Positions 6,353 through 28,746 of a stretch of DNA of 29,499 bases are shown piece after piece. The stretch is taken from contig CAZJHL010000001.1 of assembly GCA_964545865.1 (NCBI GenBank), positions 1-29,499 of the forward strand. The letters are read 5' to 3'. Made by a program: the position numbers and the translations under genes. The notes under the pieces are model-generated. The model worked only from the letters and a program-made list of their open reading frames with translations. It ran no database searches and was not told where the DNA came from. Position 1 is the first letter of the stretch. Each line of letters starts with the position of its first letter. Origin of the DNA: Candidatus Micrarchaeota archaeon. GTDB lineage: Archaea; Micrarchaeota; Micrarchaeia; CABMEP01.

Positions 6353-6376
6353 GTGATCACCTTTGTTGTTCTTTAC

Positions 6377-7192: not shown

Positions 7193-7247
7193 TTAATTCA
7201 CCTCTAATAATTATTATATTTGATTTTTGAATCTATGTAATCCACTA

Positions 7248-8072: not shown

Positions 8073-8103
8073 ACTTTCCTTTTCAAGCCCCTAACTTGTC
8101 AAC

Positions 8104-8805: not shown

Positions 8806-8853
8806 AAAACTACCTCTCCATTGCCGTTCCTATGTCTTACTTATCTGCGAAAA

Positions 8854-9567: not shown

Positions 9568-9675
9568 AATACCACTCCTTGTCATTTGAATGACAAATAA
9601 AAATAACAATAAATATTATAGGTTTATATTTAAAAAACTATTGACGCTCTTAGCTTGAAATATATACTTTAAAAT

Positions 9676-9918
9676 CTATCTGGAAATATTTGTGCTGTTC
9701 TGCTTGTAGATGATGGATACAGAAGTCATCCCACTGTCTTGCTTTGATGTTGCTGTTGCATTGCTCTCTGAATTGCTCTTGAAGATGTTTCCTTCATTGA
9801 AAAGAACAAATGTAGTGTATAATAGAAGCGCGAAAACAAACAAAAGAAGAACAAAACCCAATAGCTGCCGGTTTGACTTTGTAAGAAAACTCTTTTCCTT
9901 TGCTTTTTTAACAGCCAT
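9676..9918 (-). CDS. Small bitopic membrane protein, function unknown
   Basis: Basic N-terminus, one hydrophobic segment of about 22 aa, and a Ser/Thr/Asn-rich tail with N-x-S/T sequons. Confidence 0.6.
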   Translation of the reverse strand: MAVKKAKEKSFLTKSNRQLLGFVLLLFVFALLLYTTFVLFNEGNIFKSNSESNATATSKQDSGMTSVSIIYKQNSTNISR

Positions 9919-9941
9919 ATTCTACACCAGTCTCTCATCCA

Positions 9942-10676
9942 TCATCTTACTATAGTGTATTTAGATAGATAAAGATGGGCCTGGAGTACTACTAAGAATG
10001 GAAGAACAACCGCTGAGTTCATCAGTATTATGAACCCCTGCCTCATCATTGGATCTAAGAACATCATGAATGACAATGATGAAAATACGTAGATCATGAT
10101 GAATGCGATCAATAGCCACATTATGAAATTCAATGGCCTTCTGATTACGTGGTTGAAGCTGCTTACTAATGCTGGAACTGGCTTCTTCTCCTCTAGAACC
10201 ACTGCCGGCGCCATGTAGAAAAGACCTAATGAAACAATGAAATCCAACACGAGAGCTGGGAGCTCGTTCATGTTAATTGAAATTAAATAGCTGAGGAATA
10301 AGAATTCAAGCACCTTTATTCCAACGAATATTGCAAATACAGTTAAGGTGTATCTACTTAAATTCCTCATTGCCTCTGCAGACACCTTCGTTCTTGTTCT
10401 TGAAGCCTTGACTACTAGGGTGACTGCAACTGCAGCTAAAGATATAAACAAGAGTGAAATGCCTGCTGAAAGTATGATTGTTATGAAATCTGTCATTGTC
10501 ATTTCTGGAATGCTTCCAGACCTAAGGAAATAACCTCCTAATGCTGTGAAAACTGGCGCAGGCGAGAATGGAGGAAGCAATAAAACTAATGAAAGCAAGA
10601 ATGGGATTGAGAAAAACAATATCATTCCTATATTCTTTGTATAAGTTTCTATCGCATTTTTCAATACATCTATCAT
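9942..10676 (-). CDS. Polytopic membrane protein (about 6 TM), function unknown
   Basis: 244 aa with repeated hydrophobic segments and composition like the core genes. Confidence 0.7.
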   Translation of the reverse strand: MIDVLKNAIETYTKNIGMILFFSIPFLLSLVLLLPPFSPAPVFTALGGYFLRSGSIPEMTMTDFITIILSAGISLLFISLAAVAVTLVVKASRTRTKVSAEAMRNLSRYTLTVFAIFVGIKVLEFLFLSYLISINMNELPALVLDFIVSLGLFYMAPAVVLEEKKPVPALVSSFNHVIRRPLNFIMWLLIAFIMIYVFSSLSFMMFLDPMMRQGFIILMNSAVVLPFLVVLQAHLYLSKYTIVR

Positions 10677-10773
10677 AGTTCCACCCTTATTTTTCTAGAA
10701 ATAAATGTCCATCAAATCTTTTAAACATTCCTTTATACACTCCTTTAGCTTCCTATAGCTTCCTATGCCTTTC

Positions 10774-12276
10774 TTAGACCTTTCTTGCGCAGCCTGGAAG
10801 ATTGAATATCACAAAATAAGCAGAATTGGTTTGGAGCTTGCTTCCTCTTGTTGCTGCATCGTCATAAGATCTGATCTCAACCTTGTAGACGCCAGGAACA
10901 TAGTTGAATGGAGGGGATGAAGATATTGTTTCATTCAAATTTATGAATACCCCATCTGAATTATTCCACCAAACCATATTTCTTCCGTTCTCACTACTTG
11001 AGCCTGTTGAGCCAGAGATATCTGTTATATTGAATTTTAATCTCCAGATCTTTAAAGTTGTATTAAAATAGTAAATTGATATGTTTGTTTTAACTTCGCT
11101 TATCAAATAATTTACAGGGTCTTCCCTCCATATTCTCGCTGTAACGTTCATTTTTGATGGAATAAATGTAGTACCTTCATTAAAGAATCCCGATGGACTT
11201 GAGTATATCCTTACACTGATCGGATTGATATCACCTATCAAAACGCTTCCCACATTGACACTAGAAACTGAAGCGGAACCGCATGTTCCGACTACTGGGA
11301 CTGTCGAATTAAAGTCAAAGCTTATTGTTGGCGAGACGATAGTTCCTGGTAAGGCATTTGGTGCAGTTACTGTAACTGCAAAATCAACGCTTTGACCGGC
11401 GTTAATTGTTGAAGGCGAGAATGAATTTACAATAAAACCATTTGAAATATAAACGTTTGAAACTGTTGCATTCATATCTCCGCTATTGTTTAGCTTGAAT
11501 CTGAAGGTTACACTGCCCCCTGGAGTTACAGTATAATCGGATTGAACTGGGGTGAGGGTGAGATTTGGACCATTATAAACTGCCAATTTAATTTCTTTCC
11601 TAATTGGACTAAAGGTAGTTGATGTATAAGTTGAATCTTTCATGGGGCCGTCTGTTTCCCAAGTCCTAACAAATATTGAACAGTTTTGAAGAGTTGAAAT
11701 AAAAGATAAACTTTTACTTAAAGGTGGGGTTAATGAATAGGCTATTGAATTATTGAGATCGAATGAATTTAATACTGTCCCATTATCGATTATTGAAAAA
11801 TTACCATAGCAAAACATGCCGTGCTTAAATGATGCATCTCCCTTAGGCTGCCCAGGATTATAATACATACCGGTGCTGTTAAAAATTGCAAATGGATTCG
11901 GTCCGGTCCCATACTGATAATATTGGGTGTTAAAATAATATGAAACGTTGTTCAAGTAATCTGTTTTGTTAACAAGCAAAATTGAGAAAGGTTGGACGTC
12001 ATTTCCAACAGATGGACGTGGACCACAACCAAAAGTAGGGCAGGGAACCATAATATTTTGTAAATTTGAATAATTCCCATTAAAATAGGTTAATGCATCC
12101 AATGTTAGACCTGAACAAACAGCGGTTCCATCACTCAATTCTGTACCTAAAGTTGATATGTTCAATCCTAAACCTACAGATACATCTGAATCTATTCTAC
12201 TTTGCTGTATTCCTATAAATGTAATTGAGAAAGAAAAACTAAACATAATTAAAAGCAATAAGAATGTTTTTTTCAT
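10774..12276 (-). CDS. Secreted/surface glycoprotein with an Ig-like domain
   Basis: Signal peptide MKKTFLLLLIMFSFSFS, about 19 N-x-S/T sequons counted by hand, and an Ig-like segment VTPGGSVTFRFKLNNSG...INAGQSVDFAVTVTAP. Confidence 0.7.
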   Translation of the reverse strand: MKKTFLLLLIMFSFSFSITFIGIQQSRIDSDVSVGLGLNISTLGTELSDGTAVCSGLTLDALTYFNGNYSNLQNIMVPCPTFGCGPRPSVGNDVQPFSILLVNKTDYLNNVSYYFNTQYYQYGTGPNPFAIFNSTGMYYNPGQPKGDASFKHGMFCYGNFSIIDNGTVLNSFDLNNSIAYSLTPPLSKSLSFISTLQNCSIFVRTWETDGPMKDSTYTSTTFSPIRKEIKLAVYNGPNLTLTPVQSDYTVTPGGSVTFRFKLNNSGDMNATVSNVYISNGFIVNSFSPSTINAGQSVDFAVTVTAPNALPGTIVSPTISFDFNSTVPVVGTCGSASVSSVNVGSVLIGDINPISVRIYSSPSGFFNEGTTFIPSKMNVTARIWREDPVNYLISEVKTNISIYYFNTTLKIWRLKFNITDISGSTGSSSENGRNMVWWNNSDGVFINLNETISSSPPFNYVPGVYKVEIRSYDDAATRGSKLQTNSAYFVIFNLPGCARKV

Positions 12277-12317
12277 CAGACATACTTAGCTCTAATAATT
12301 TTTATTCCTTTCTATAA

Positions 12318-15300
12318 TTAAAATCTGATTGAAAGGTGTCCAGTTGGGATATTGTTCTTAAATATATTATTAAAGTCAACTGTGTCTCTTCCAGCTTTTG
12401 GCATTAAGCTCAATCCGACCCCTAATTCTGATTTCTTTCCTTGTATTCTTAATTCTGCACCGAAACCCTTGGGGGATAAAACATCTCCATTAAAGTATTC
12501 CCAAATAGACCAAGCGTAAGTATTTGTTTTTACATTAAGATCTAAGATGTTTCCTAGCTCTTTATTTACTGAAGTTCTAGGTGAACCATCTATAAAATCT
12601 ATATTAAACACAGTTCTCCAATTAATGCTTGCCGGTAATCCATTTATACCTAACCAACTAAATGGAATTGATAAAGGCATTGAAATGTTATTTGTCCTTG
12701 TTTGCATAAGCCATCTGTCATCATACTTAGTTACTGAAATTTCATCAAATAAATTTACTATTTCAACAAGTTTCTTTCCTACTATTTTATTTCCTTCCCA
12801 TTCATGTAAGACGTGTTCACCGAACTTTTGGAAAATCATTTTGTCTTCTTCAGACATTGATTTAATTGTCCAATCCTTATTGCCTCCAAAAAACTCAATC
12901 TTAACTTTTTCTTTTTCATCTACCCTTAAGTGATAACCGATTCCACCTAAAATTTTCTTCTCTTGTTTTGTTCCTTCATCGTATTTAAAGATCGGATTTC
13001 CGTAATTATCGTAGTCTTTGATGGACGCATAAACGTACTTTGTATCATATTGAATCCAACCTGTTTTTATATAAAGATCTTTCTTGATATAAATGTCCAG
13101 TGCGTTAACTGATCTTGTTTGATTCACTTTTAATTGCTTTGGAACGTTAACCAATGAAATTTCCGACCCGAATTGACTTGAAAGAAGATCGCTTGGCATT
13201 TGAGTTTTAAATTTGCCTTCTTTAATCGAATCTTTATTTTCCTCAAGCCATTTCTTTGTTGCATCTCCTCCGACTTTTGCTGGATCTAATTTGTAAGCCT
13301 GATTGATGGCATCGTATATTAATTTATTAACTTCAATTAAATTAAGCGGATTTTGATCGGCATTTTTTTGTAAATTCCATGCTTTATTAATTAAAGATGC
13401 AACACTTTCAGAGAATCTAGATTCGAATCCAGTCGGTACTCCTCCGATTCCACTTCCAGTATTGATACTGTTTTTGATGAAAAATGGGATTGAGATGGGT
13501 AACGATTCTGGAGCTTTGATTTTGATTTCCGCTGTTTCAAATTTAAATGATTTTAAGAATTTAAACGCATTTCCTTTTATTTTGAATATCCCTGAAAGGT
13601 TTAAATCTTCTTGAGAACTGATTTGAGGTAAATCAAATTCAAATCTATTGTTGTTATGAACATTCATTATTGAATTAAACGGCAGACTGTATTTATCATT
13701 TTCACTATAATTCTTGCTAGACTTCCATTTACCCGGTAACCCTGCGAACACCTTGGAACTGAATTTTATGGTTTCAGTATAAAATATTATTTGTGAATTA
13801 TCTTTCTTTCCAGGTTGGACGTCTAGTAATACGTTATCTGGCGGTAAAAACTTTACAATTGCCCTAACTTGATTTCCTTTTTCAATTAATTGAACATTAA
13901 ATCTAATCTGCTGAACTTGACATTCGCCAGAAATTGAATTTATGATTTTATTTGCCAAATCTCTTATCTCATTAGGTTTAGAAGGAAATACTGCCTTACC
14001 AGATAAATAATCATTCAATGGGGTTTGATCCTTTTTGAACTCTAAGCGTACCGCACCTAACTGTGGAACCCCTATGATTTTTTCTTTGCCGTCCTTCATT
14101 ATTTCAAATACCCCTTGAACTAATGAAGACATAAACAGATAATAGTCTGCCTTGTTATCTAAATACTTTTCATTATTCTTGCTTTTCAACATAATTTCAT
14201 TTGATTTGTCAATAATCATTGGTACCATATAATAGAACATCTCTGCAAGTGCTTTCGCTTGGTCTAGCTGGCGCGACATTGCGTCTTCTTTTTGAGAAGT
14301 TGACACTGCCTTTATTAATATATTATATGCTTCATCCATGAATACATACATCATTGCGGGCAATTGTCTAAGTACATCTGGATATTGAGAATATAATGGA
14401 GCGTAATTTACTATTTGTGTACGAATCAAATCGTGGATATATAATTTAATGGCTTCATATTTTATGCCGACTTCTTTATTGGCCATTGTATAGTAATTAA
14501 AACCTGCATCAAAACTACTTGAAATTCTTCCATCGTTAATGATTTTTAATATTTGATTATATACGTCTTTGCTGCTTTTAACACCTGGAACAACATTTCC
14601 ACTCAGGTAACCATCTGGATACAATGCTGCCTTATCGTTGTTTTGGTAAAGAAGAGAATCGCCATCCTTCCACAAGCCGATTTTAACTCTTTTTAACCCC
14701 TGGACCTGTAATTCGGAAAGCTTGCACTTGCCAGTTTGATCAAATAAGGCTTCATACAATTGGCCCGAAAGTAGTTTCTTAGAATCCAAATGGATCCATT
14801 TATCTGTAATAGAAAAACCGAATTCCTTTAAATTTATTGATTCTTTTTTGTCAACTAATTCTTGGATTATTTTAAGATCCTCTTCTCGGCCCTGTATCGT
14901 CATAATAGCTGAAATATTAAGTATAGTTAAATATTGTTGTTGCTCATGTCCGATCGGCCCATAGTTTAGGCTTGAACCTAAGATAGTAGCTAGTTTTTTC
15001 CTTTTTTCATCGGATTCTTCCATATATCTATTTATTTTTTCTACTATGTGTTGTAAATATTTTTTTTGCAGGAAATCTATTTTTACTTGTTCCTCTTTAG
15101 ATGTTTTCGATCGTGCGTAACCATAAAATCCTTTTTCTTTACCGAATGGAATTTCATTAATCACTTTAAATGTATTGCTTTCTTCTTTAGCTCTTAGATA
15201 TTCTAATTTTTTAGACTTAACTTCGCTATATGCCCTTGACCAAAATAAGTTTAGATTCTTTTGTTCTCCTTCTCGCAAAAAATCTTGTTTATTCATGATT

Positions 15301-15476
15301 TCACCTACTCTGTCACCCATCCTCTCATACCTAATTGTATTAAACGTTTGGTTTTTAAATTCTTTTGCTTCGGAAACTGGAATCCCATGGAATAACGGTT
15401 CGATTAATAAAAAAGAAGAGATAAGTAATCTGTTAAGATTTAATCTTCTTGAACGTGTGTTTTCCTTTAAGCGCAT
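12318..15476 (-). CDS. Giant hypothetical protein A (1052 aa): signal-like leader and beta-rich C-terminal domain ending in Phe
   Basis: Long ORF in an AT-rich region. Its N-terminal about 57 aa are homologous to the N-terminus of 19261..22506. Confidence 0.8.
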   Translation of the reverse strand: MRLKENTRSRRLNLNRLLISSFLLIEPLFHGIPVSEAKEFKNQTFNTIRYERMGDRVGEIMNKQDFLREGEQKNLNLFWSRAYSEVKSKKLEYLRAKEESNTFKVINEIPFGKEKGFYGYARSKTSKEEQVKIDFLQKKYLQHIVEKINRYMEESDEKRKKLATILGSSLNYGPIGHEQQQYLTILNISAIMTIQGREEDLKIIQELVDKKESINLKEFGFSITDKWIHLDSKKLLSGQLYEALFDQTGKCKLSELQVQGLKRVKIGLWKDGDSLLYQNNDKAALYPDGYLSGNVVPGVKSSKDVYNQILKIINDGRISSSFDAGFNYYTMANKEVGIKYEAIKLYIHDLIRTQIVNYAPLYSQYPDVLRQLPAMMYVFMDEAYNILIKAVSTSQKEDAMSRQLDQAKALAEMFYYMVPMIIDKSNEIMLKSKNNEKYLDNKADYYLFMSSLVQGVFEIMKDGKEKIIGVPQLGAVRLEFKKDQTPLNDYLSGKAVFPSKPNEIRDLANKIINSISGECQVQQIRFNVQLIEKGNQVRAIVKFLPPDNVLLDVQPGKKDNSQIIFYTETIKFSSKVFAGLPGKWKSSKNYSENDKYSLPFNSIMNVHNNNRFEFDLPQISSQEDLNLSGIFKIKGNAFKFLKSFKFETAEIKIKAPESLPISIPFFIKNSINTGSGIGGVPTGFESRFSESVASLINKAWNLQKNADQNPLNLIEVNKLIYDAINQAYKLDPAKVGGDATKKWLEENKDSIKEGKFKTQMPSDLLSSQFGSEISLVNVPKQLKVNQTRSVNALDIYIKKDLYIKTGWIQYDTKYVYASIKDYDNYGNPIFKYDEGTKQEKKILGGIGYHLRVDEKEKVKIEFFGGNKDWTIKSMSEEDKMIFQKFGEHVLHEWEGNKIVGKKLVEIVNLFDEISVTKYDDRWLMQTRTNNISMPLSIPFSWLGINGLPASINWRTVFNIDFIDGSPRTSVNKELGNILDLNVKTNTYAWSIWEYFNGDVLSPKGFGAELRIQGKKSELGVGLSLMPKAGRDTVDFNNIFKNNIPTGHLSIRF

Positions 15477-15533
15477 ATAAATCTAAGAATAAACCTATTT
15501 CGAATTAAAATACTTTTCGGTGTTGTTTTAGAG

Positions 15534-16730
15534 CTATTTCTCAGCAATGACGTTTAATCCATTGTCCTTAAGTGTCAAATGCAATTTATTTGTTTTGCTT
15601 ATTTCGTATATATACTCAACATCTTTGACTACCCTACTCACCAAAAAATCATAAAGTTTTTTGCTGTTTTTATCATTCAAATCTAAAGTGATGGGTTCAG
15701 AAAAATTAGATGACCAATCCTTACTATTAACTTGACTTATGAGATTTTTCACTTGACTACAATTATTAATCAAACTCTGAAGAAGTGTATTTTCTTTACC
15801 TGTTAATACTAAAGTTTTTGATGCTTCTTTCTGTTTGCCTTTTTCCTTATCTTGTTCCTTTTCTTTTTCTTCTTTCTTCTGTTCTTTTCCTGTCTGAATT
15901 GATTTCTCTTCTTTTTTCTTCTCTTTTGCAGATTCTTTTGATGCAACATACTTCTCAAACGTTTGCCTTATTTCATTTAAGGATTTTTCAAGTCTTTCTA
16001 TCTTCTCTTTATTTTCACCTTTTTCTTTTTCCAATTCCTTCTTCGTCTCTTGATGTAGTTTTATAATTTTTTGCATGGCATTAACATAACGTTCAATTTC
16101 ATCTGTATCTTTTTTACTTGAAGCATACTTTACCAAATCAGGTAAATCTTTCAGTGATTTGAAATCTTCTTTAAATCTAGTCCACCACGTCTCCTTTTTT
16201 GTTTTAGAATCTATTTTTTCTAATGTTTTTTCCATTTCGGAGATTGCATTTGATACTGCTTCAGTTGACTTTTGAATATCTGTAAGTGGAACGGATGAAA
16301 CTTGAATTTCTTGTGATTTTGTTTCTAAAGAAGGTGTTTGGACCTGTTCTTTCTTAATCAATTCTGGCATTTCATCCAGTTTTATCACTCCTTTTTCTTT
16401 ATCTATAATGGGAATAATTAAACCCATCTCTTGTGCTTCTCTTGTTACATTTAAACTGGCTAAATCATCTTCAAATAAGTCAACTTGCGTTTTCTTGAAT
16501 GCAGAAGTGAATATCAGATCGATTTTGATGTGGTCTTCTTCATAAATTTTAATATCTTTAAAAATCGGTTTTTCGCCTTTGTTAATACGAATTATGTCTG
16601 TATTGATTCTTTTAAGAATTATATCTCCTACATCTTGTGGAATCTTATCTTTGCTTATATATTTTTCAATCAATTCTTTTTTTTCATTTAAACTAACTAT
16701 CTCTTTTGGAATGATCTTTTGTCCTGCCAT
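15534..16730 (-). CDS. Hypothetical Lys/Glu-rich coiled-coil protein
   Basis: Long ORF. The likely start is MAGQK at 16730 after GGTGAAGGTGG. It has a low-complexity KE tract. Confidence 0.7.
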   Translation of the reverse strand: MAGQKIIPKEIVSLNEKKELIEKYISKDKIPQDVGDIILKRINTDIIRINKGEKPIFKDIKIYEEDHIKIDLIFTSAFKKTQVDLFEDDLASLNVTREAQEMGLIIPIIDKEKGVIKLDEMPELIKKEQVQTPSLETKSQEIQVSSVPLTDIQKSTEAVSNAISEMEKTLEKIDSKTKKETWWTRFKEDFKSLKDLPDLVKYASSKKDTDEIERYVNAMQKIIKLHQETKKELEKEKGENKEKIERLEKSLNEIRQTFEKYVASKESAKEKKKEEKSIQTGKEQKKEEKEKEQDKEKGKQKEASKTLVLTGKENTLLQSLINNCSQVKNLISQVNSKDWSSNFSEPITLDLNDKNSKKLYDFLVSRVVKDVEYIYEISKTNKLHLTLKDNGLNVIAEK

Positions 16731-16813
16731 CTTGCCACCTTCACCCATAATACCACGATTATATTACGTGTCCCATATTTAAATATATTTGTTTGGTACT
16801 AAAGGTCTATACA

Positions 16814-16827
16814 AAAAAATATATAAA
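16814..16827 (+). promoter_or_regulatory. BRE/TATA-like element AAAAAATATATAAA
   Basis: Lies about 22 nt upstream of the ATG at 16849. An identical 14-mer occurs at 19184-19197. Confidence 0.5.
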
Positions 16828-16848
16828 TAGTGGTGGAGAAATTAAGCT

Positions 16849-17790
16849 ATGCAAGCACAAATTAAAGATGAATACAGTATAATTAAAAAAAGATATATCG
16901 AGATCAATGAAAAATTCAGAAATCAGTCAAAATTGACTTCTACTCAAAAAGAAGAGTTAATAAAAGAAATCTCTGCCTTAAATTCTCAACTTAAAAAGAA
17001 TCCCGAAATAGGTAAGAAACTTGAAGAAGAGATGAAAATTATTCTTTATAACTCAGATGGCACGTATAATGGAAACCGAATCAAGATAATGGCGTATTGG
17101 ATAAGAAGAGAGGAAATGAACAAGGAAATTTTAAAACTTAGAGACGATAATTTGGCAGTAATAGAATTGATTAATGAACCTAAAATGAGAAAACGACTTA
17201 AGAAAACAACCGAATCCATTGAAAACCTTAGAAACGCGGAAATTGAGGAAAATTCAAGCAATACGATGTTAAGAAAGTTTTATCTGGACATAATAGAGAT
17301 ATATGAACAAAGCATAGAAATCGCAAAAGAAAGAAATATTGAATATAAAGGAATGCTCGTTGGAATGGAAGATGCGGAAAAATTCAATAATTTCATGGTT
17401 GGACAGATAGACCTCTCCTTAGCTGGTTTGATGAGTAAAGAGTTTGCGAAAACTATGTATCCTTATATTAGTCTATTTAAAAATAAAAAAGAATATAGCG
17501 AAGAAGAAATTAAATTAATGAATAATTTAAAAAGAGAAATACAAGCAAAAATAGATCAGCTTACAAAGAAACTTGAAAATGTTAAAGAAGTAAAAGAAAG
17601 AAGTCTTACTTTTTTCAAGAAAGTCGCAAGCGGAGATAGAAGCGCAAGTTTAGAAATGGTTCAAGAAGCGGCGGAAAAATGGAAGAAATTTGTTCCGAAT
17701 GCAAAAAAAGTTGAAGAACAAACAAAGATAGAGATAGAAGGTCTCATTCTTGCTTACTCTGCTTTAGATAGGCTACAAAAAACAGTTTAA
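16849..17790 (+). CDS. Hypothetical alpha-helical/coiled-coil protein
   Basis: 313-aa ORF with heptad-like K/E/I/L composition. Its stop abuts the pop5 stop with no gap. Confidence 0.7.
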   Translation: MQAQIKDEYSIIKKRYIEINEKFRNQSKLTSTQKEELIKEISALNSQLKKNPEIGKKLEEEMKIILYNSDGTYNGNRIKIMAYWIRREEMNKEILKLRDDNLAVIELINEPKMRKRLKKTTESIENLRNAEIEENSSNTMLRKFYLDIIEIYEQSIEIAKERNIEYKGMLVGMEDAEKFNNFMVGQIDLSLAGLMSKEFAKTMYPYISLFKNKKEYSEEEIKLMNNLKREIQAKIDQLTKKLENVKEVKERSLTFFKKVASGDRSASLEMVQEAAEKWKKFVPNAKKVEEQTKIEIEGLILAYSALDRLQKTV

Positions 17791-18114
17791 TTATTTGATT
17801 TTCTCCTTAGCCTTTCTTATTGTGCCTGACGTGTAGACTGCCTTAAGGTGAATCTTTTTTCCTTCGTATGAATTTAAAAGAGCCAAAGCAGTCTTTAAAT
17901 CCTCTACGCCTTCATTCAGGCATCTTATGATCGCTTTTTGTCTTAGGTTGTCAAAATAAGCAACGCTTGGCATCACTTTCGAGTAATGAATCTTGCCAAT
18001 CAAATTCAGAAAATCCTTCCTAAGTATGGAAACTAGGTCCTCCTTGGCCAAAGGAACCTCTGAGATGACCTCTATTGCAACGTACCTGTGATTCTCCCTT
18101 AGTGTAGGTTTCAT
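17791..18114 (-). CDS. rnp2: RNase P protein subunit Pop5/Rpp14 (P2)
   Basis: MKPTLRENHRYVAIEV...AIIRC...YTSGTIRKAKEK. Start moved to the ATG at 18114. Confidence 0.93.
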   Translation of the reverse strand: MKPTLRENHRYVAIEVISEVPLAKEDLVSILRKDFLNLIGKIHYSKVMPSVAYFDNLRQKAIIRCLNEGVEDLKTALALLNSYEGKKIHLKAVYTSGTIRKAKEKIK

Positions 18115-18132
18115 GAATCCACCAACCATATT

Positions 18133-18576
18133 TTACAAATGTCTTTTAAGAAGCATGAAGGACTGCCTTATCTGGTCTCTACTCATTCCGCACAGCCGCA
18201 TTATCGATGCAGCTTCATCTATGCTCCTTATAGAATACTTATCCTTTGCAAATGAAGCAACTATGAATTTAAGCTTATAATGCCTTCCTACTCTTATGAA
18301 ATTAGAAATACGATAGATTGCCAGATGGGGATTCTCATTCAAGATATCGGACAGGGAAATAAGGAACGGCTTATTTAGGGATTTCGCCTTGGCAAACATC
18401 TCTAACGAAATCTCGTATTTTGGGCAGTAAAGAATGCCTCCTTTCCTCATATTCTTTATTATCTTATCTGGATCTCCAATCACGAGCTTAGGCTTTATCT
18501 CTGAAAATTGATAGAATTTGACCTGGTCTTTGATGTTTGATTCGCTGTCTAGAGATTCCACTATGTCGAAGTACAT
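18133..18576 (-). CDS. rnp3: RNase P protein subunit Rpp30 (P3), shortened
   Basis: Lies between rpl15e and pop5. The C-terminal IVASFAKDKYSIRS...LCGMSRDQ resembles the Rpp30 end motif. Only 147 aa. Confidence 0.7.
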   Translation of the reverse strand: MYFDIVESLDSESNIKDQVKFYQFSEIKPKLVIGDPDKIIKNMRKGGILYCPKYEISLEMFAKAKSLNKPFLISLSDILNENPHLAIYRISNFIRVGRHYKLKFIVASFAKDKYSIRSIDEAASIMRLCGMSRDQIRQSFMLLKRHL

Positions 18577-18635
18577 GCTATCAAAATAAGTTAAAAGAAA
18601 AAGAATAAAAGATTAGGCTTATCTCTCGTACTAAT

Positions 18636-19118
18636 TTATCTTAAGCCTCTCATCTTCCTTCCTTGAGAAGTCAATCCTCTGAATACTCTTCCTTTCTGTA
18701 GGTTAAGGCCCGTCTTTTCAGGATTTGCGAGTATTACTTCATAGAACTTGTATTGGCCATCATCCCCAACAAAGTATGAGTTAAGGACTTCGAAGTTTCT
18801 GTATTTCTTTCCTGCTCTCTCCTCTGCAATTAGTTGGAGTGATTTGTGTCTTGCATAGAATTGACCTGTCTTTGAAGGCTTTCTTCCTCTCATATGGATG
18901 TATCTCTTTCTCTTTCCTCTCTCTACTCTCACTCTTGCTACCACAAATCCATCCTTTGCTTTATAGCCTAATGTCCTCGCTCTTGCAAGATTAGTAGGCT
19001 TTTCCACTCTAACTACTGGAGATTCCTTTCTCCATTGAGCTATTCTTGCCCTATATGCTGGGGACCTTTCCTTGTATTCTTTTCGGAATGTTTCCTGTAT
19101 CTGCTTATAAAGAGACAT
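18636..19118 (-). CDS. rpl15e: 50S ribosomal protein L15e (eL15)
   Basis: WRKESPVVRVEKPTNLARARTLGYKAKDG, AEERAG, LNSYFVGDDGQYKFYEVIL and FRGLTS. Confidence 0.96.
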   Translation of the reverse strand: MSLYKQIQETFRKEYKERSPAYRARIAQWRKESPVVRVEKPTNLARARTLGYKAKDGFVVARVRVERGKRKRYIHMRGRKPSKTGQFYARHKSLQLIAEERAGKKYRNFEVLNSYFVGDDGQYKFYEVILANPEKTGLNLQKGRVFRGLTSQGRKMRGLR

Positions 19119-19183
19119 AGTATCACTTTAACTAATTTAATAAGTCAAAACTTAAGTTAAGACTGTAAGATATATTAACTTAG

Positions 19184-19197
19184 AAAAAATATATAAA
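19184..19197 (+). promoter_or_regulatory. BRE/TATA-like element AAAAAATATATAAA
   Basis: In the divergent rpl15e / giant protein B intergenic region and identical to 16814-16827. A second TATA-like element, GAAAATATATTAA, follows near 19217-19229. Confidence 0.45.
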
Positions 19198-19260
19198 GCT
19201 TAATCCCTAGATGGCGGAAAATATATTAACCCCTTTTGTGTCTTATTTTTGCTGATTTTT

Positions 19261-22200
19261 ATGCATATGAAGGAGTATTCGCAGTTCTATAAAAGTAATG
19301 AAAAGATCAAAAGGCTTGTTAGAATCACTTTTGCATCCTTTCTTCTAGTCGAACCCCTAATCCTTCCATTGAATGCAAAAGAGGCAGATACAAAAGCATT
19401 TAAAAATCAAATGAATAATAGTATAAAGGTGGAAAGGATGGGTGATAAAGTGGCAACCGCACAAAAACAAAGAAGTCAGTTAGTAGAGGAGGCTAAACGT
19501 GACATATATGGATTAATAAACTCAACTGATAAAGACATGCTCTTAAGAACTTATAATTCAATTAAAGAAAAAAGAGAAAAAAACAAAGAATACAATGATG
19601 CTTACAAAGAAGCATGGATAGAAATCTCAAAAAATAAAAAATATGTAGATACGTTCAATGAAAAATGGCAGAAAGCAGAAAAGGCGTATAAAACACAAAG
19701 TGCTGCAGCGCAAAATCTTATTGAAAGCTTAAGAAAAGTCTTTCCTAATGCACAAACTATAGAGGTTACTATGAGTGGAACGGGTATAACCACTGCGAAA
19801 GAAAAGCAGAGTGCGTTTGATGCTTATTTGAAAGTAACAGATAAAAACGGAAATGCGATTTGGGGTGGGATTAAATTTAAACGTGATAATAATTATGGGA
19901 TTTCTTATGAATATCTTGGCAAAACAGAAGTGACAAAAGAAGGAATAAATGAAATGGAAATTTGGATAAAAGATGGGATTGCAAAATTAAATAAATGGGA
20001 AGACGCGAAAACAAGGTTTGCGCAATTCAGAGGATATTGGCTTGAACCTAATGAAAAAGCATATGTTTTCGTAAGTGGAGAAACGGGCACTTACTCATAT
20101 ACAAAATTCAAAAAGGAATCTGATAATAGCATTACGTTGATAATATCTGGTTCAGCTTCGACTTCAAATATTACATATGAAAAAATGAAAAGGGAGGAGA
20201 CATTTTACAAGTATAGTGGAAAGATCGAATCTACGATACCAGTTATAAATAAAATAAGCGAGATTAATGGAACACTCACTCAAAATCTTGAAATTCTTGG
20301 AGAACGAGAATTAATGCTGACTATTACTCCGAAAGGTGAAAAAACTAGAAATGAATTATACAAGGGAGGCAAAGTTAAAATTGGTGATACATATTTCTCA
20401 GTATCTGCGCCGTTTGTAGAAAAAAACCCAGATATGACTAATCCCCGAATGTACGTATTTGTTTATTATTTAGATGCAAACGGGAATCAAGTTAAATCTG
20501 AAAAAATTGAGGTTGAAAAAGAAATATCTTTATCTTTCTTAGATACATATTTTAATCTAAAAGTTTCACCTTCAAAGAAATCAATAGACAATGCAATCTC
20601 TTCATTATCTGATCAAACATATTATATAATTATAAATGAGACAAAAATACCCATTAATCCTTCAATTAACAAAGCAATTAATTACCAAGATAATAAAAGC
20701 AACTATACAGTTGAATTTAGTAGTGTAAACTTTAGCGGACCAATAATAAATGGAGAAATACAAAATATGACTGGAGATCTCAATATCACTGACAATGCAA
20801 CTGGCATCACGCAAAAACTGAAATTAAATATTGGTGTGCAAACTAATGTAAAATTTGGAAATAATATTCTAGACGTTAAAATAGAACAACCTGAATATAT
20901 ATCTATACTTAACAATGTGCGATATGAAAATATGAGAATTAATTTTAGGACAAACAAAATCGAGAATGACAAAAAAGAAATAGCATACCTTAACAATGCT
21001 TCTTGGGACGGCATAGTTAAATTTAAAGAAAAAGAGTTCAATCTCCAAGCTAAGGCGATTATGCTCTCAGAAGGTCCATTTGCAGAAAAGGAAGAAAAAC
21101 TAAAAGAAAAAGTGCCAAAGAGTAGAAAACAAGAGGAGCTCTTAAATGAAGAAACGGCACAGACGGGCGCAATAGGAACTTTGACTGGCTTATCTGTTCA
21201 AAACTTGATTGGTGTTTCATTCAACGCTACAAATTCAATAGGAAATGGTATTTGGGGTGTCTTATATGACCCAAGACCTTTGATAGAAAAAGGATATAGT
21301 GACAATGGTGATGCACTTAAACAAATAACTGCGAAATTTAAAACAGCTGGATGGAAGAGCCTCGGATTGACTGGTTTAACTGCTTATGAGCAAGAACAGC
21401 TATCAAAAGGAAATATAGGTGTAGAACAAATAAAAGATGTTACAGGTTATGGTCTTTGGTTATTGTTTGACACCTTTGCATTGCATGGTGAAGGAAGAAT
21501 AATTGACGAAAAGATCAAAAAGGAAATAATAAATATGATTGAGACCAAAGGTGACAGAACTGAATTTCTTTTCAGCACTTTCGATCCTAATAGAGAGGGA
21601 TTTCAGATACTTACAATTAAATACAACCAAGAAAGGAAGAAAGGGGAAGAGAATAAAAACTATATTGGCATACAAAAAACAGACTATACTACTTCGACCC
21701 AATATAAAATAAACGATATGAATAGATTAATTAATTCATTGTATGGTAAACTAGATTTAAATAGTATCAAGAGGAGTCAAGATGAAATTATGGTTGGAAA
21801 TCCAACAAGTATAAAGCAACTTACAGAGTTTAGTTATAAGAGATGGAACCCTACAATCGGAATTGGAACCCCGTTTGGTGCTTATGAAGTTGGACTGCAT
21901 TATGCGAATGGTACTGAAATAAAAACTATTGAAAGTTCCGAACTGACAACTAATAGAACTGAGATAAAGGAAATAGGCCAGAATTTAATTTTTAAAGGAA
22001 TTCCGTTATTTGGAATGGAGATTAACGGCACGTACGAAAAAAGAAGAACGGATAGCTTAACTAAAAATAACAATATACTAAATTTATTTTCAACTAACAA
22101 CTATGAAATTATTGAAATTCAGCCATTAGCTAAACTTGGTTTAGATGCATATGCGTATCTTACAGTTCGACAGAGATTGGATTCTTCTGAGATTAACTCT

Positions 22201-22506
22201 TTGGAAAAAGGAGATGTAAAAAGAACAAAAACGATTTCCAAGGAGATAAGACCTGGTTTTAGAAATAAATGGATGGAATTAAATATATTCTACATATTGA
22301 GCGATCAAGAAACATTCAGCAAAACAATTTCTAATTTAGAAAAGATGAAAAACGAGCAGAAACAATGGGGGGTTAACGCGTTTGGAAAAGCCAGCGAAAA
22401 TTTAACGTTCAACCTTTCTTATTACAGGACATGGAATTCACTCGTAGGAACTACATGGGGCATAAATGCTAGAATTGGGTTGAAATTTGACTTAAGTACA
22501 AAATAA
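19261..22506 (+). CDS. Giant hypothetical protein B (about 1081 aa): signal-like leader and beta-rich C-terminal domain
   Basis: Long ORF. Start moved to the ATG at 19261 because MHMKE aligns with MRLKE of protein A. Confidence 0.8.
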   Translation: MHMKEYSQFYKSNEKIKRLVRITFASFLLVEPLILPLNAKEADTKAFKNQMNNSIKVERMGDKVATAQKQRSQLVEEAKRDIYGLINSTDKDMLLRTYNSIKEKREKNKEYNDAYKEAWIEISKNKKYVDTFNEKWQKAEKAYKTQSAAAQNLIESLRKVFPNAQTIEVTMSGTGITTAKEKQSAFDAYLKVTDKNGNAIWGGIKFKRDNNYGISYEYLGKTEVTKEGINEMEIWIKDGIAKLNKWEDAKTRFAQFRGYWLEPNEKAYVFVSGETGTYSYTKFKKESDNSITLIISGSASTSNITYEKMKREETFYKYSGKIESTIPVINKISEINGTLTQNLEILGERELMLTITPKGEKTRNELYKGGKVKIGDTYFSVSAPFVEKNPDMTNPRMYVFVYYLDANGNQVKSEKIEVEKEISLSFLDTYFNLKVSPSKKSIDNAISSLSDQTYYIIINETKIPINPSINKAINYQDNKSNYTVEFSSVNFSGPIINGEIQNMTGDLNITDNATGITQKLKLNIGVQTNVKFGNNILDVKIEQPEYISILNNVRYENMRINFRTNKIENDKKEIAYLNNASWDGIVKFKEKEFNLQAKAIMLSEGPFAEKEEKLKEKVPKSRKQEELLNEETAQTGAIGTLTGLSVQNLIGVSFNATNSIGNGIWGVLYDPRPLIEKGYSDNGDALKQITAKFKTAGWKSLGLTGLTAYEQEQLSKGNIGVEQIKDVTGYGLWLLFDTFALHGEGRIIDEKIKKEIINMIETKGDRTEFLFSTFDPNREGFQILTIKYNQERKKGEENKNYIGIQKTDYTTSTQYKINDMNRLINSLYGKLDLNSIKRSQDEIMVGNPTSIKQLTEFSYKRWNPTIGIGTPFGAYEVGLHYANGTEIKTIESSELTTNRTEIKEIGQNLIFKGIPLFGMEINGTYEKRRTDSLTKNNNILNLFSTNNYEIIEIQPLAKLGLDAYAYLTVRQRLDSSEINSLEKGDVKRTKTISKEIRPGFRNKWMELNIFYILSDQETFSKTISNLEKMKNEQKQWGVNAFGKASENLTFNLSYYRTWNSLVGTTWGINARIGLKFDLSTK

Positions 22507-22561
22507 TCTGAAAGATGAAAAAAGTTATGTTTGATTATTTTTTTTAGTCAAGATATTAGTA

Positions 22562-24229
22562 TTATGCTCTGAGTAATCCATTTGATATTAATTTTTGTAT
22601 AATTTCTTGTTCAGATTTACCTTTCAATTCATCGATGTGTTTTAAAATGGAATTTCCAACTACCTCTAATGAAGCCTCTATCATACCCTCATTATTAACA
22701 ACCTTAAAATAAGTTTCTAAACCTTCTGATTTTATTAATATTCTATTTGGAAGTAATAACTTTACTAATTGTTCTAATTCAGCTACTTGCGAGTTTATCT
22801 CTCTGTTTAAAAGTTTGAAATTTCTTGGTTCCATAGAAGTTTTTTTCTGTTCTCTGTAATTATTGAGAGCACTAATAATATTCTGCGCTGTGATTTTGGT
22901 TTCCTCGGTATATGTAAGTTTCTTTTGCTCTTGTTGGATTGGCTTAACTTCCATCTTTTTATTTTCAATTTGGTTGCTTTCTTTTGACTCCTTTTCTTCT
23001 GATACTTCTTCTATTTTTACCTTCCATTTGGTTGTTCCTTCTATATGTTTTGGATAATCTTGGGTAAATCTATATTTTTTGCCTGTATTTTCAGTGATAT
23101 TATTTATTGTAGATAGAAATTCATCTTTTATCTTATCAAAGGCAGCATAGTTGTATTCTACTTCTTGCCCTTCGACCAATACCTCGATTTTATATTTTGA
23201 CTTTGGATTGTTCTTATTTATGGGTTGGTTGAAGTTTACAATATTATTTCCTGTACCTAATTCTACTTTATTCTTGTAAACAAATCCAAGAGGTCTTTCT
23301 TTATTTTCATTTTCAATATTTTTTTGCTCTAGCTTAACTGCATACCATATTTTTCCATCAGATTTATCTATTCTTTTTGGATATCCATTTGAATATGTAA
23401 ATTGTATATTATAATTTTTGACTGCGTCGTTTATTTTATCCAATAACTCAGCACTTCGTTTCTTATTCGAATTCTTGACGTTCTGGCTCAAATCTGCTTG
23501 AAATTCTACCTCTACTAGTTCATTCACTAATTTTTGTATTTTGTAAGACGACTCGTCCTTTTCATCTGCTTTTTTGTTGAAATTTATACTGTCAACCATA
23601 ATCTGTTGCTTGATAATAAATTCTGATACGTTTGTTTCCTTTTTTTGCTCATCGGCTTTTAATTTTTGTTTTTCACCAATTTCTTCTCTTTGATTATTTT
23701 TATCATCCGTATACTTCTCCTTTAAATCTGATATTTGTTCACCTACATTATCTATTTTTTTCTTTATTGCCTTTAAATTTATGTCGAATACCTGCAAAGA
23801 CGATTTAGGTTTTACATCGCTACTTGGAATTTCAACTTCTTTCCCTATATAAACATAGTCAAAAAAAGCTTTAATGTCATTTTTAGCTTCAAATTGATTC
23901 TTCCAAACTTTAACATACTCATGATCTTCAGGTAGGGCTTCGGCCTTAAATTCGTAACCTAATCTTTCAAAAACAGACTCAAGAATTTTTATTTCTTCTT
24001 CATTAAGAACTAGGATCATGCCTTCCACATTGATATCTGGTTTCTTTTGTTTTTCCAGTATTTCTTCTATTTTATTCTTTGTATCTTTTACATCCAATAT
24101 TTTTGTTTTATTTGGAATAAGATCTATTTGATCTAAGAATTTCTTCACGACCTCTTGTTCTCTTTTTGAAAATTTAGTCTTTTCCTCTTTTTTAATCGAA
24201 ATTTTGGCAACTTGAAACAATATAAACAT
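22562..24229 (-). CDS. Hypothetical charged protein with an internal domain duplication
   Basis: Long ORF. The likely start is the ATG at 24229 after GGGGTGAAGGG. Two related segments YKI..LV...EVE...DKI.D...FT...YPK.I...W..VK.E. Confidence 0.72.
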   Translation of the reverse strand: MFILFQVAKISIKKEEKTKFSKREQEVVKKFLDQIDLIPNKTKILDVKDTKNKIEEILEKQKKPDINVEGMILVLNEEEIKILESVFERLGYEFKAEALPEDHEYVKVWKNQFEAKNDIKAFFDYVYIGKEVEIPSSDVKPKSSLQVFDINLKAIKKKIDNVGEQISDLKEKYTDDKNNQREEIGEKQKLKADEQKKETNVSEFIIKQQIMVDSINFNKKADEKDESSYKIQKLVNELVEVEFQADLSQNVKNSNKKRSAELLDKINDAVKNYNIQFTYSNGYPKRIDKSDGKIWYAVKLEQKNIENENKERPLGFVYKNKVELGTGNNIVNFNQPINKNNPKSKYKIEVLVEGQEVEYNYAAFDKIKDEFLSTINNITENTGKKYRFTQDYPKHIEGTTKWKVKIEEVSEEKESKESNQIENKKMEVKPIQQEQKKLTYTEETKITAQNIISALNNYREQKKTSMEPRNFKLLNREINSQVAELEQLVKLLLPNRILIKSEGLETYFKVVNNEGMIEASLEVVGNSILKHIDELKGKSEQEIIQKLISNGLLRA

Positions 24230-24249
24230 CCCTTCACCCCATATAATCC

Positions 24250-25608
24250 TCATTTAATCTCTATATTAATGCTAGCTGGAGTCAATTGTGATAGTTTAAT
24301 TGCCTGATCAATAACACCCACTTTTTCTTCCATTATTTGTAACCCTTTACCATCAAGATATCTTTCTATTTCACTCTTTATTTTATTCTTTGAATTTGCA
24401 TATAAATTATACCGATCTGGATAAATTACTATCTGAACTACATCATCTTTTTCCACAATATAATAACTCTTACTGTCAATAAATATCTTTCTTCCAGCAG
24501 TATCCTTGTTTATGAATCTTGATTCTCCGAACTCTGGAGGCTTCCATATTATCTGTGGTATATCTTGAAGATTCCAGTCAAAATTTATTGAATCGAATGA
24601 GACATAGTAGCCGTTCTCGTCAAGCCAGACCTCGTTTCCATACTGGTCCTTTGAGAGGATTGCCCATTCGCCGTTTCTCATCCTTAGCTTTGTTCCAATC
24701 TCGATTTTTTCAAGCTCTAATTCTCCGGTCTTTAGTAATAGACCTATATCTTTCTTCCTAATCTCTGCATCCGTGCCTGTGATGTATCCACCTTTTCTCT
24801 TTAATGCGTAGAATGACCCTTCTCCTACGAAAAGACAGCCTGCTGTAGTTTGATTGTAAAGGTCGTCCAGTATTCCTGCCTCGCTCCCGAGAGGCGCTTC
24901 CCCTATGAAGCCAGGGTATATGTAGGAACGGAAATGCAGTTTTTCAGTGCCTTTAAATGGGATTTTAGCTGAACCCATCAGATTGAAAATGCTCCAAGGA
25001 TGCGGAGAAGTTGAAGATGAAAAGGAATTTGGATATACTTGTCTCAGTTCTGAAAAGCCTTTCCTTCCGGGAGGTATGACCCAGCCTCCTTTTTCTAATT
25101 TTCCTAATTCAAATGTACCAGTCCTTAATGGAATAGAAATAGAAGCTCCCGAAAGGATAGTCGCGTCCTCTACTTCGCCATTGTTTACTTTTGCCAAAAT
25201 CCCAATATTCGGATTCGCATAAAGCTCATATCCTTTTCCAGTCAGTTTTTTATCCTTTATTGCATCGTCCACGAAACTTTGAAGTATATCTTTAGGTGGT
25301 GAAAAGTAGTTTATCTCTCTCGCATAGCTCTTCCCCACATAAAGCATTGGTTTTTTGTTCTCTTCTCCTATCCTGAAAACAATCTGATAGCCGTTATTTC
25401 TGATGAAATCGTAGATTTCATTTATGAGTTTCTTCTTAAAATCATCGTTTGTTATATTTATCGGTATTTTGAAAAATGAACCCTTAGCCTCCTTCAGGTC
25501 TTCGATAGAAAATTTCATCACTTCTTTCTCTGCTATTTCTTTTATTTTTTCTAGTATTTCATCGATTTCCTTTTTTTCGTTCTGAACTTCTTTTAATATA
25601 GGTGGCAT
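24250..25608 (-). CDS. Hypothetical protein, possible L,D-transpeptidase-like (YkuD/DUF5675/Tlde1-type) catalytic domain
   Basis: 452-aa ORF with the motifs IPLRTGTF, LHF and TTAGCLFVG in order. The family call is tentative. Confidence 0.45.
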   Translation of the reverse strand: MPPILKEVQNEKKEIDEILEKIKEIAEKEVMKFSIEDLKEAKGSFFKIPINITNDDFKKKLINEIYDFIRNNGYQIVFRIGEENKKPMLYVGKSYAREINYFSPPKDILQSFVDDAIKDKKLTGKGYELYANPNIGILAKVNNGEVEDATILSGASISIPLRTGTFELGKLEKGGWVIPPGRKGFSELRQVYPNSFSSSTSPHPWSIFNLMGSAKIPFKGTEKLHFRSYIYPGFIGEAPLGSEAGILDDLYNQTTAGCLFVGEGSFYALKRKGGYITGTDAEIRKKDIGLLLKTGELELEKIEIGTKLRMRNGEWAILSKDQYGNEVWLDENGYYVSFDSINFDWNLQDIPQIIWKPPEFGESRFINKDTAGRKIFIDSKSYYIVEKDDVVQIVIYPDRYNLYANSKNKIKSEIERYLDGKGLQIMEEKVGVIDQAIKLSQLTPASINIEIK

Positions 25609-28720: not shown

Positions 28721-28746
28721 TAGATAGATTAAATGGAGGCGACTGG

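Follow-up and report, generated by a model that had tools for sequence, protein, structure and literature searches.

A conserved promoter-leader cassette heads interchangeable bodies in two giant genes of a Micrarchaeia clade

In Campylobacter fetus, several large S-layer genes of the sap family have one conserved 5' region and N-terminal segment in front of different bodies; copies may lie in opposite orientation, recombination in the conserved 5' region changes the body that is expressed, and the conserved N-terminus docks the protein to the envelope in a system with a type I C-terminal secretion signal, lipopolysaccharide binding and one movable promoter. Conserved N-terminal signals also head large bacterial surface proteins with dissimilar passengers that are exported by Sec, namely the extended signal peptide region (ESPR) of autotransporters and the YSIRK-G/S signals. 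DPANN archaea live attached to host cells, and to our knowledge the molecules of this attachment are almost unknown. VARTIG modules of the Thermococcales contain a large immunoglobulin (Ig)-domain protein with a constant N-terminal part, of which only the C-terminal domain varies (PMC8416519), and Candidatus Micrarchaeum harzensis has a heavily glycosylated envelope protein of ~100 kDa, SLP_Mh, with TIGR01564/TIGR01567 domains (bioRxiv 10.1101/2021.04.28.441871). Here we analyse a stretch of 29,499 nucleotides (nt) from Candidatus Micrarchaeota (contig CAZJHL010000001.1, assembly GCA_964545865.1; hereafter the window), in which two giant genes, A and B, open with the same N-terminal leader and continue into dissimilar bodies. 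A preliminary description had taken this leader for a portable targeting or pro-peptide module and had proposed an undescribed secretion or assembly route. Our best explanation is that A and B form a pair of genes, two to a genome, that is peculiar to one hot-spring Micrarchaeia clade.

The coordinates and reading frames of both leaders were correctly described at the outset (Table 1). The mechanical open reading frame (ORF) of B opens at TTG 19249, and close relatives (L008 and L003) confirm ATG 19261 as its start. BLASTP of A against B yields one significant segment, which is N-terminal in both and spans the first 74 residues (29/74 identities, 39%; E 2e-9), with all remaining segments at E > 1; A-family and B-family bodies stripped of the leader compare at an hhalign probability of 0.1%. 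As had been claimed, then, the two giants are alike in the leader only, and the likeness is visible in the DNA: the longest inverted repeat within 15200-19560 joins 15307-15367 to 19391-19451 (61 nt, 75%), and similarity extends upstream of both ATGs over a common promoter motif. In generalised form the leader motif reads [SA]-S-[FL]-L-L-[VIF]-E ... K-x-F-K-[NKY]-Q-x-x-N-[ST]-I-[KR]-x-x-x-M-G, and it occurs just twice in the six-frame translation of the window. Pop5, Rpp30, L15e and exosome genes confirm the archaeal source that had been supposed, as does the closest record, a Micrarchaeia metagenome-assembled genome (MAG); the nearest named relative of A is likewise a protein from a Candidatus Micrarchaeia MAG. 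PsmA, SBDS, Rrp4, Rrp41 and Rrp42 lie to the left of A, and Pop5, Rpp30 and L15e between A and B.

A leader profile built from six sequences was run exhaustively against 1,835,955,588 representative proteins (E <= 0.001) and returned nine matches, eight of them proteins of 1,080-1,231 aa and the ninth a 126-aa fragment. Each match begins at residue 8-34, and those with a named source organism all come from Micrarchaeia. With nine proteins in a database of this size, N-terminal every time, the likeness of the A and B leaders is not chance. A word-index search with the two leaders alone gave no match, which reflects its sensitivity limit, the exhaustive profile search having succeeded. Homologs of A and of B number a handful each among 5.8 billion clustered proteins, A orthologs sharing 38-84% identity, and those called from the first ATG have the same leader. 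A scan of one genome per species (185,579 species) with a single strict peptide pattern for the second conserved block of the leader (core 2) found three Micrarchaeia MAGs and two bacterial loci; the latter (L006 and L007) were set aside as DnaA proteins with a chance match to NSIRYDRMGD. Metagenomes of the Joint Genome Institute (JGI) contributed one further, near-identical contig. We rejected a viral origin on the absence of the leader from IMG/VR viral contigs, the lack of PHROG matches and stable synteny among housekeeping genes.

The synteny is shared by the window, L001-L004 and L014, in which a 244-aa membrane protein gene is followed by the gene for a 500-aa protein, giant A, a coiled-coil gene (360-408 aa), a 313-aa gene, Pop5, Rpp30, L15e and giant B; past giant B, where the contig reaches (window, L001, L002 and L003), come a 520-810-aa gene and then one of ~450 aa. 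The giants are the sole matches of the leader hidden Markov model (HMM) across all loci compared, and because they occupy two fixed positions per locus, flanking Pop5-Rpp30-L15e, the leader is part of a two-gene system and not a general tag. P0015, a distant leader-bearing member, is located elsewhere in its genome. Inversion between the two inverted leaders was considered and rejected, order and orientation being identical in all six loci. With two genes per locus, three MAGs among the species genomes and nine protein clusters matched by the profile, a widely used export tag does not describe these data; nor was a dedicated, co-occurring peptidase or translocase found, the conserved neighbourhood holding no recognisable ATPase, translocase or peptidase.

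All-against-all BLAST and hhalign with the leader removed sorted the bodies into at least five types (A, A', B, C and X), all of which stand behind the one leader. Type A is found in the window, L001, L002, L014, P0005 and P0016; type A' in L003, L004, P0010 and P0017; type B in the window, L001, L002 and, distantly, L003 and L004; type C in P0012; and type X in L005, while the body of P0015 stands alone. Between types, neither BLAST nor hhalign detects similarity beyond the leader region in full bodies or in the last 260 residues (hhalign probability <= 4%), with the partial exception of B and X, whose similarity runs ~80 residues past the leader (hhalign probability 91.5%). Types B and B2 are linked by profile comparison only, at 99% probability. 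Neither the giants nor their neighbours of unknown function had a match in Pfam, NCBIfam, PHROGs or PDB sequence searches, and A and B are not full-length paralogs of a known family. An AlphaFold2 (AF2) model of A (predicted local distance difference test, pLDDT, 56.9) has a helical N-terminal half, a beta-sandwich at ~466-650, a helical stretch at 684-772 and a beta-rich C-terminus ending GHLSIRF, where pLDDT falls to 25-45; that of B (pLDDT 37.6) is unusable. Foldseek of the A model against PDB and BFVD gave no match below E 0.001, and weak Ig/fibronectin type III-like matches fall on the predicted middle beta-sandwich. Structure prediction is too weak for either giant to be assigned a modelled fold.

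At the C-terminus of every body type (window 12318-12380 and 22440-22506; L003, L005, P0010-P0017) lies an amphipathic beta-strand that has an aromatic residue at or close to its end and, in some cases, a Lys-rich tail behind it (..GHLSIRF, ..HLGLKVRY, ..GVSLKIPF, ..INFYYARRF). These strands resemble the beta-signal of bacterial outer-membrane proteins, although archaea are not known to have an outer membrane or Bam machinery. When we looked for an autotransporter-like barrel, the aromatic-ended strands were present in all types, with no Pfam match and with C-termini that do not align to one another, and a C-terminal domain common to the body types was not found in the last 260 residues, a beta-amphipathicity profile being weakly suggestive.

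Related loci were compared at the DNA level. By blastn, the window and L003 are 78-80% identical over 9002-11571 and 16886-19452, with only leader matches in between, and the right-hand block stops at 19452, the final codon of the B leader, after which the sequences cannot be aligned. Loss of all similarity at one nucleotide position (19452/19453) between genomes with flanks of ~80% identity is the mark of a replaced body and not of gradual divergence. MAG JAVZCX01 matches the window at 82% nucleotide identity over 10186-18531 (8.4 kb), so it carries the same A allele; on its second contig (L005), an 85% match is confined to 19331-19453 and gives way to an unrelated 1,343-aa body. Within a single JGI sample (3300044273), three alleles of the A locus lie on contigs L009, L010 and L011, which carry A-, C- and A'-type bodies. 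Their ends of 120-127 nt are 100% identical, which is typical of alternative assembly-graph paths, and besides these ends they have in common an island of ~296 nt (88-93% identity, flanks unalignable) that runs from ~35 nt before the ATG to the leader end and comprises promoter and leader. The leader is therefore the sole conserved island within hypervariable region A and the constant piece in each of the two hypervariable regions, which contain 29-34% guanine plus cytosine versus 38-46% at 5001-11000, where superoperon genes lie. Together, at least five body types and a break of homology at the junction bear out the view of the leader as a portable N-terminal module on interchangeable large cargoes.

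L015, the contig with P0007, starts 14 nt before the junction Met, and the leader/body junction seems to be a place where assemblies break, as would be expected where a conserved block adjoins strain-variable sequence. The Lys/Glu-rich coiled-coil genes beside the giants (404 aa, 15534-16748; 563 aa, 22562-24253) encode no signal peptide and are replaced along with the giant bodies; their products may be cognate partners or chaperones of the giants. The 500-aa protein (10774-12276, minus) has a classic Sec signal, a CARDB/DUF1573-like domain and few charged residues, and ends ...NLPGCARKV; its N-terminal ~235 residues fall within hypervariable region A and vary between alleles.

Selection on the leader acts on the peptide. 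In the hydrophobic core, [SA]-S-[FL]-L-L-[VIF]-E-[PS]-L, the amino acids do not change, whereas the codons for Leu, Ser, Val and Pro (of SSFLLVEPL) vary freely, and third-position changes dominate in diverged leader pairs (for example 13/7/24 between the A and B leaders of L002), which together indicate purifying selection on the translated peptide. The reading frame stays open through a length variation of 52-82 codons, and RNAalifold found no conserved RNA structure in the leader and predicted no pairs. Because this selection holds across lineages whose bodies are unalignable, the leader is not the relic of a recent duplication. Of the Glu-Pro pair said to be invariant, the Glu is conserved family-wide (Asp once), but the Pro is Ser or Thr in several lineages. 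Leader identity is 74% between A and B of L002, 33% between the A leaders of the window and L002, and 59% between the A leader of L003 and the B leader of the window. Paralog leaders within a lineage are more alike than orthologous leaders across lineages and have lineage-specific residues in common (FKKQ..VDGMG in one lineage, FKNQ..ERMGD in the other); in L001 and L002, core 2 is nearly identical between paralogs even at synonymous sites. Co-evolution with a shared partner, gene conversion or the two together would account for this pattern.

The promoter belongs to the same conserved unit. Each of the 14 leader-bearing genes compared is preceded by a B recognition element (BRE)/TATA-like motif, cgAAAnnTATTTTAA, that begins 29-39 nt ahead of the first ATG; L014 has the motif as well. 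No Shine-Dalgarno motif separates it from that ATG, a placement that would be expected for leaderless or nearly leaderless archaeal mRNA.

The layout of the leader resembles that of a Sec signal peptide, and the 16-22 conserved residues behind it would be the N-terminus of the mature protein. The A leader has a basic n-region (residues 1-16), an h-region (L17-I25, LLISSFLLI), E26-P27 and a c-region to A37, with a possible signal peptidase I site (arrow) at SEA↓KE and the conserved segment K38-V57 (KEFKNQTFNTIRYERMGDRV) beyond it; the B leader has an n-region (1-21), an h-region (I22-V30, ITFASFLLV), E31-P32, a possible site at LNA39↓K40 and the conserved segment K45-V64 (KAFKNQMNNSIKVERMGDKV). 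All leaders place 3-6 Lys/Arg before the hydrophobic run and have uncharged runs of 9-12 residues and moderate hydrophobicity (LLISSFLLI, ITFASFLLV, IATLSLSSFLLV), and most have small residues at -3/-1 (SEA↓K, LNA↓K, AFA↓G, ISA↓E, FSA↓Y, SMS↓Q). The positive-inside rule would put the body outside the membrane. Since the n-h-c layout of an ordinary Sec signal peptide suffices, the undescribed export route of the preliminary description becomes unnecessary, and the sequence of its A↓KE cleavage site is not conserved.

Other signal classes were considered and rejected. For a twin-arginine translocation (Tat) signal, with its S/T-R-R-x-F-L-K motif ahead of the h-region, A contains SRRLNL, but there is no RR at that place in B, L003, L004 or the P0005 type, and the RR column is not conserved. 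The string S-S↓F-L-L-V-E mimics the F+1/E+5 of class III (type IV pilin-like) signals, but has Ser at -1 and Ser or Ala at -2 in place of [KR]-[GA], and just ~8 partly hydrophobic, Pro-rich residues follow the Glu where such signals have a hydrophobic helix of ~20 residues. No leader has a conserved Cys that could form a lipobox. Archaeosortase/PGF-CTERM processing is disfavoured by C-termini that are amphipathic beta-strands (..GHLSIRF, ..GLKFDLSTK) and not membrane helices, and known S-layer families (TIGR01564/01567, SlaA and others) by the lack of any Pfam (E <= 0.01) or NCBIfam (E <= 1) match and of any PDB sequence or fold match.

We tentatively favour a reading, to which we give somewhat less than an even chance, in which Sec export is combined with docking through a common mature N-terminus and with strain-to-strain replacement of the bodies. 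Each giant gene would consist of a constant 5' cassette (BRE/TATA promoter, leader of about 55-85 codons, and a Shine-Dalgarno-like motif with an in-frame ATG at the body junction) and a replaceable body of ~1,000 residues. Both giants would be exported by the general Sec system and the signal cut near A37 in A and A39 in B, leaving the K-x-F-K-x-Q-x-x-N-x-I-K-V-x-x-M-G segment as the first 16-22 residues of the mature protein. This N-terminal peptide, probably a short amphipathic strand, would dock both giants to one envelope partner or to each other, and recombination with breakpoints at the leader/body junction would swap the exposed bodies from strain to strain. We infer export, cleavage, docking and surface exposure from the features set out above, which point to cassette-style variation of probable envelope proteins rather than to a general new export tag. 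Such hypervariable islands usually carry genes for parts of the envelope, and we count as context for an envelope role the neighbouring 500-aa protein, a typical secreted glycoprotein with 19 N-x-S/T sequons versus 9.7 +/- 2.5 expected.

Several observations weigh against this reading. The signal peptide was assigned by rule of thumb, a conserved Glu sits within its hydrophobic part, and the mean Kyte-Doolittle hydrophobicity of the h-region over 19 residues is 1.3-2.0, versus 2.3-2.7 for clear signals and membrane helices of the same genome. The A leaders of L003 and L004 have no small residues at plausible -1/-3 positions (PIYVKE and PIYTKE; ..FEPIYVKETK), so cleavage would be either not universal or elsewhere. 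In composition the giants, which are rich in Lys and Glu (~14% K+R, 12-14% D+E, sequons not enriched), are like their cytoplasmic coiled-coil neighbours and unlike the 500-aa glycoprotein, and it is these cytoplasmic-looking coiled-coil genes that vary jointly with the bodies. The partner to which the mature N-terminus would dock is hypothetical. Finally, the conserved internal Shine-Dalgarno and ATG, discussed below, suggest that part of the product is made without the leader.

Some observations would sit well with a dedicated tag, the view of the preliminary description, in which a clade-specific, undescribed export or assembly machine recognises the leader through the conserved Glu and K-x-F-K..I-K-V..M-G. 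Conservation is unusual for a signal peptide, yet the hydrophobic core is selected at the protein level; paralog leaders co-evolve within a lineage, as expected with a common receptor; the composition of the cargo is cytoplasm-like; and conserved neighbours of unassigned function (313-aa, 452-aa and 244-aa membrane protein) accompany the giants in every case. Such a machine would, however, serve just two substrates per genome from a neighbourhood that offers none of its recognisable parts, an archaemetzincin gene being present in L001 and L002 only; P0015 has the leader in another neighbourhood without these genes, and a plain Sec layout is enough, so we hold this explanation to be unlikely. 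We also think it improbable, to a similar degree, that the leader is an uncleaved signal anchor, whose 17-24 hydrophobic residues around the conserved Glu would remain membrane-embedded N-in/C-out, the Glu pairing with a partner helix, such as that of the 244-aa membrane protein, and K-x-F-K..M-G lying beside the membrane. The total hydrophobic span, R..LLISSFLLIEPLFHGIPVS, is 19 residues, the A leaders of L003 and L004 lack a signal peptidase I site, and the same ambiguity between signal peptide and membrane helix is reported for the S-layer protein of Micrarchaeum harzensis (bioRxiv 10.1101/2021.04.28.441871). Against an anchor, the span is broken by Glu and one to three Pro, its mean hydrophobicity is under that of real membrane helices in the same genome, and most leaders have good -3/-1 sites. 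Ancient full-length paralogy would dispense with swapping altogether: the bodies would descend from one ancestor and have diverged beyond recognition, with the leader as the most constrained part. Similar lengths (1,050-1,340 aa), the aromatic-ended strand that closes all types, and the fast divergence implied by the profile-only link of B to B2 agree with this, but the remaining pairs fail to match in full bodies and at the C-terminus, similarity between well-conserved flanks ends at a single nucleotide position, and orthologous leaders are no more conserved than bodies (33% for the leader and 47% overall between A of the window and of L002), which makes this account decidedly unlikely. Least probable, and in our view very improbable, is that the block matters as DNA only, as a homology arm for recombination or a regulatory region with a functionless peptide. 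Near-identity of core 2 at synonymous sites between paralogs in L001 and in L002, the coincidence of recombination breakpoints with the block end, and the assembly break in L015 would accord with it; against it, the frame is open through 52-82-codon length variation in every lineage, core 1 is rich in synonymous change with invariant residues, conserved RNA structure is absent, and no frameshifted or stop-containing leaders were seen in intact genes.

An idea that can coexist with the Sec-export, anchor or dedicated-recognition explanations is that the junction is an internal start giving leader-bearing and leaderless forms (from Met53/61 in A and Met60 in B) or, alternatively, that its Shine-Dalgarno-like motif programmes a pause aiding capture by the signal recognition particle. 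AGGT(G) lies at -11..-7 of an in-frame junction ATG, and the pattern AGGT[GAT]N4-7ATG matches at the junction in 12 of 13 giants and seldom in frame elsewhere in those genes; in A it matches codons 53 and 61 in frame, and a perfect AGGTGA-N4-ATG stands at Met61 of A and of its close ortholog. This motif and its spacing recur at the genuine Shine-Dalgarno sites of Rrp41, Rrp4, Rrp42 and the 244-aa membrane protein (AGGTGA or GGGTGG). The AGGT is retained through different codons and residues (AAG-GTG for K-V, AGG-TAT for R-Y, AAA-GGT-G for K-G-V), and in the B genes of the window and L003 the junction AAG is the sole AAG among the 7 and 6 Lys codons followed by GT. Gene callers, including NCBI annotation, begin four of the nine database proteins at an internal Met (P0002, P0004, P0006, P0007; L014 3306): in P0002, the 84%-identical A ortholog, the NCBI start is the Met61 equivalent, and P0006 and P0007 are called from the Met60 equivalent. 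The leader is missing from these records because the calls begin at an internal Met after a Shine-Dalgarno motif. In addition, the codons for K-x-F-K (AAA-GNN-TTT-AAA-AA) resemble a BRE/TATA element; this string precedes the junction ATG by 39 nt, a distance that falls in the 29-39 nt range of the real TATA. Internal transcripts or starts that give N-terminally truncated isoforms have been shown experimentally in Halobacterium (PMC6161675), likewise by way of an in-frame internal start within a coding region; the difference is that here the case consists of a conserved Shine-Dalgarno-ATG and a TATA-like string only. On the other side, TATA-like strings are common in DNA with ~30% guanine plus cytosine, the Shine-Dalgarno before Met53 is weakened in L014 (AGA) so that the Met61 site alone is canonical, the strict pattern fails in P0015, and the effective independent lineages are few, about 6-8. 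Judged from these motifs, both a leaderless isoform, from an internal start or transcript, and a pause site at the junction are plausible, although we consider the two-isoform idea as such possible and somewhat doubtful. A bolder synthesis, in which a private, undescribed export or assembly pathway acts together with the junction start to give labelled (exported or anchored) and unlabelled (cytoplasmic) forms, and the C-terminal strands, like those of outer-membrane proteins, insert the exported form into an envelope layer or the host membrane, is in our judgement a long shot.

Table 1. Coordinates in the window of the giant genes, their parts and the regions around them
Feature	Position	Strand	Remarks
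Giant gene A	12318-15476	minus	ORF, 1,052 aa
Promoter of giant A	15505-15520	minus	BRE/TATA-like CCGAAAAG-TATTTTAA; TATA-ATG 28 nt, no Shine-Dalgarno
Leader of A, residues 1-57	15306-15476	minus	leader HMM, 85 bits
Junction of A	15294-15320	minus	Met53 (15318-15320) after AGGTA; Met61 (15294-15296) after canonical AGGTGA-N4
Body of giant A (A-type)	12318-15305	minus	no known domain
Giant gene B	19261-22506	plus	1,081 aa counted from ATG 19261
Promoter of giant B	19214-19229	plus	GCGGAAAA-TATATTAA; TATA-ATG 31 nt, no Shine-Dalgarno
Leader of B, residues 1-64	19261-19452	plus	leader HMM, 104 bits
Junction of B	19427-19440	plus	AGGTG at -11..-7 of in-frame Met60 (19438-19440)
Body of giant B (B-type)	19453-22506	plus	no known domain; ends ...GINARIGLKFDLSTK
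Hypervariable region A	~11571-16886		N-terminal part of 500-aa glycoprotein gene, giant A, 404-aa coiled-coil gene
Hypervariable region B	~19452-24419		giant B body and 563-aa gene; left edge is the leader/body junction
Conserved core between giants	16849-19118		313-aa gene (plus), Pop5 (minus), Rpp30 (minus), L15e (minus); Pfam and synteny in L001-L004, L014

The surroundings of the giants have features of their own. The exosome/proteasome superoperon (Rrp42, Rrp41, Rrp4, SBDS, PsmA ... Pop5, Rpp30, L15e; 5573-19118) is interrupted between PsmA and Pop5 by a block of ~8 kb that holds the 244-aa membrane protein, the 500-aa glycoprotein, giant A and the 404-aa and 313-aa genes. The archaemetzincin (Peptidase_M54) gene mentioned above lies between the coiled-coil and 313-aa genes (L001 6849-7397, L002 6829-7377) and is absent at that position in the window, L003 and L014. 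Elsewhere in the window, tRNA-Ala(GGC) at 28649-28720 overlaps the first 58 nt of a 202-aa ORF (28663-29271), which therefore probably starts at a later Met, and genes for a [NiFe]-hydrogenase large-subunit-like protein and a NuoB-like small subunit (671-2560, minus) are present in this reduced DPANN genome.

The locus looks as one would expect for strain-specific envelope or contact proteins, having two giant genes with their own strong-looking promoters, a selected common front end, and bodies swapped wholesale between co-existing strains. The 60-residue peptide, which can be fused to reporters, offers a concrete handle for study, and the two hypervariable islands are now defined for population data. 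Public annotation hides the leader, since several gene calls begin at an internal Met, and if the internal start is used, each giant gene would be a natural example of a single archaeal gene with products in two locations.

The A/B system, which is well delimited and confined to a small clade, belongs to none of the known families with which we compared it; its closest analogues in function are the sap genes, motif-bearing signals such as ESPR and YSIRK, and the VARTIG and polymorphic toxin loci. The sap genes of C. fetus are likewise large, with a conserved 5' region and N-terminus and variable bodies; by contrast, the giants each have their own promoter, the host is an archaeon, no inversion is seen among six loci, and bodies are exchanged between strains and not within a cell. 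ESPR and YSIRK share with the leader a sequence-conserved N-terminal signal common to large proteins with dissimilar bodies, but these bacterial motifs are unrelated, and in the giants conservation runs ~20 residues past the predicted cleavage point and is confined to two genes per genome. SLP_Mh has a comparably ambiguous N-terminus, signal peptide or membrane helix (bioRxiv 10.1101/2021.04.28.441871), whereas neither A nor B matches an NCBIfam or Pfam model or shows enrichment in sequons. VARTIG modules (PMC8416519) and polymorphic toxin systems also combine a large protein with a constant N-terminus and a recombining variable part with neighbours that co-vary, although in the giants replacement takes in the entire body of ~1,000 residues, and we recognise no Ig, toxin or immunity domain. 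By analogy, this likeness suggests roles for the giants in conflict or in self/non-self discrimination.

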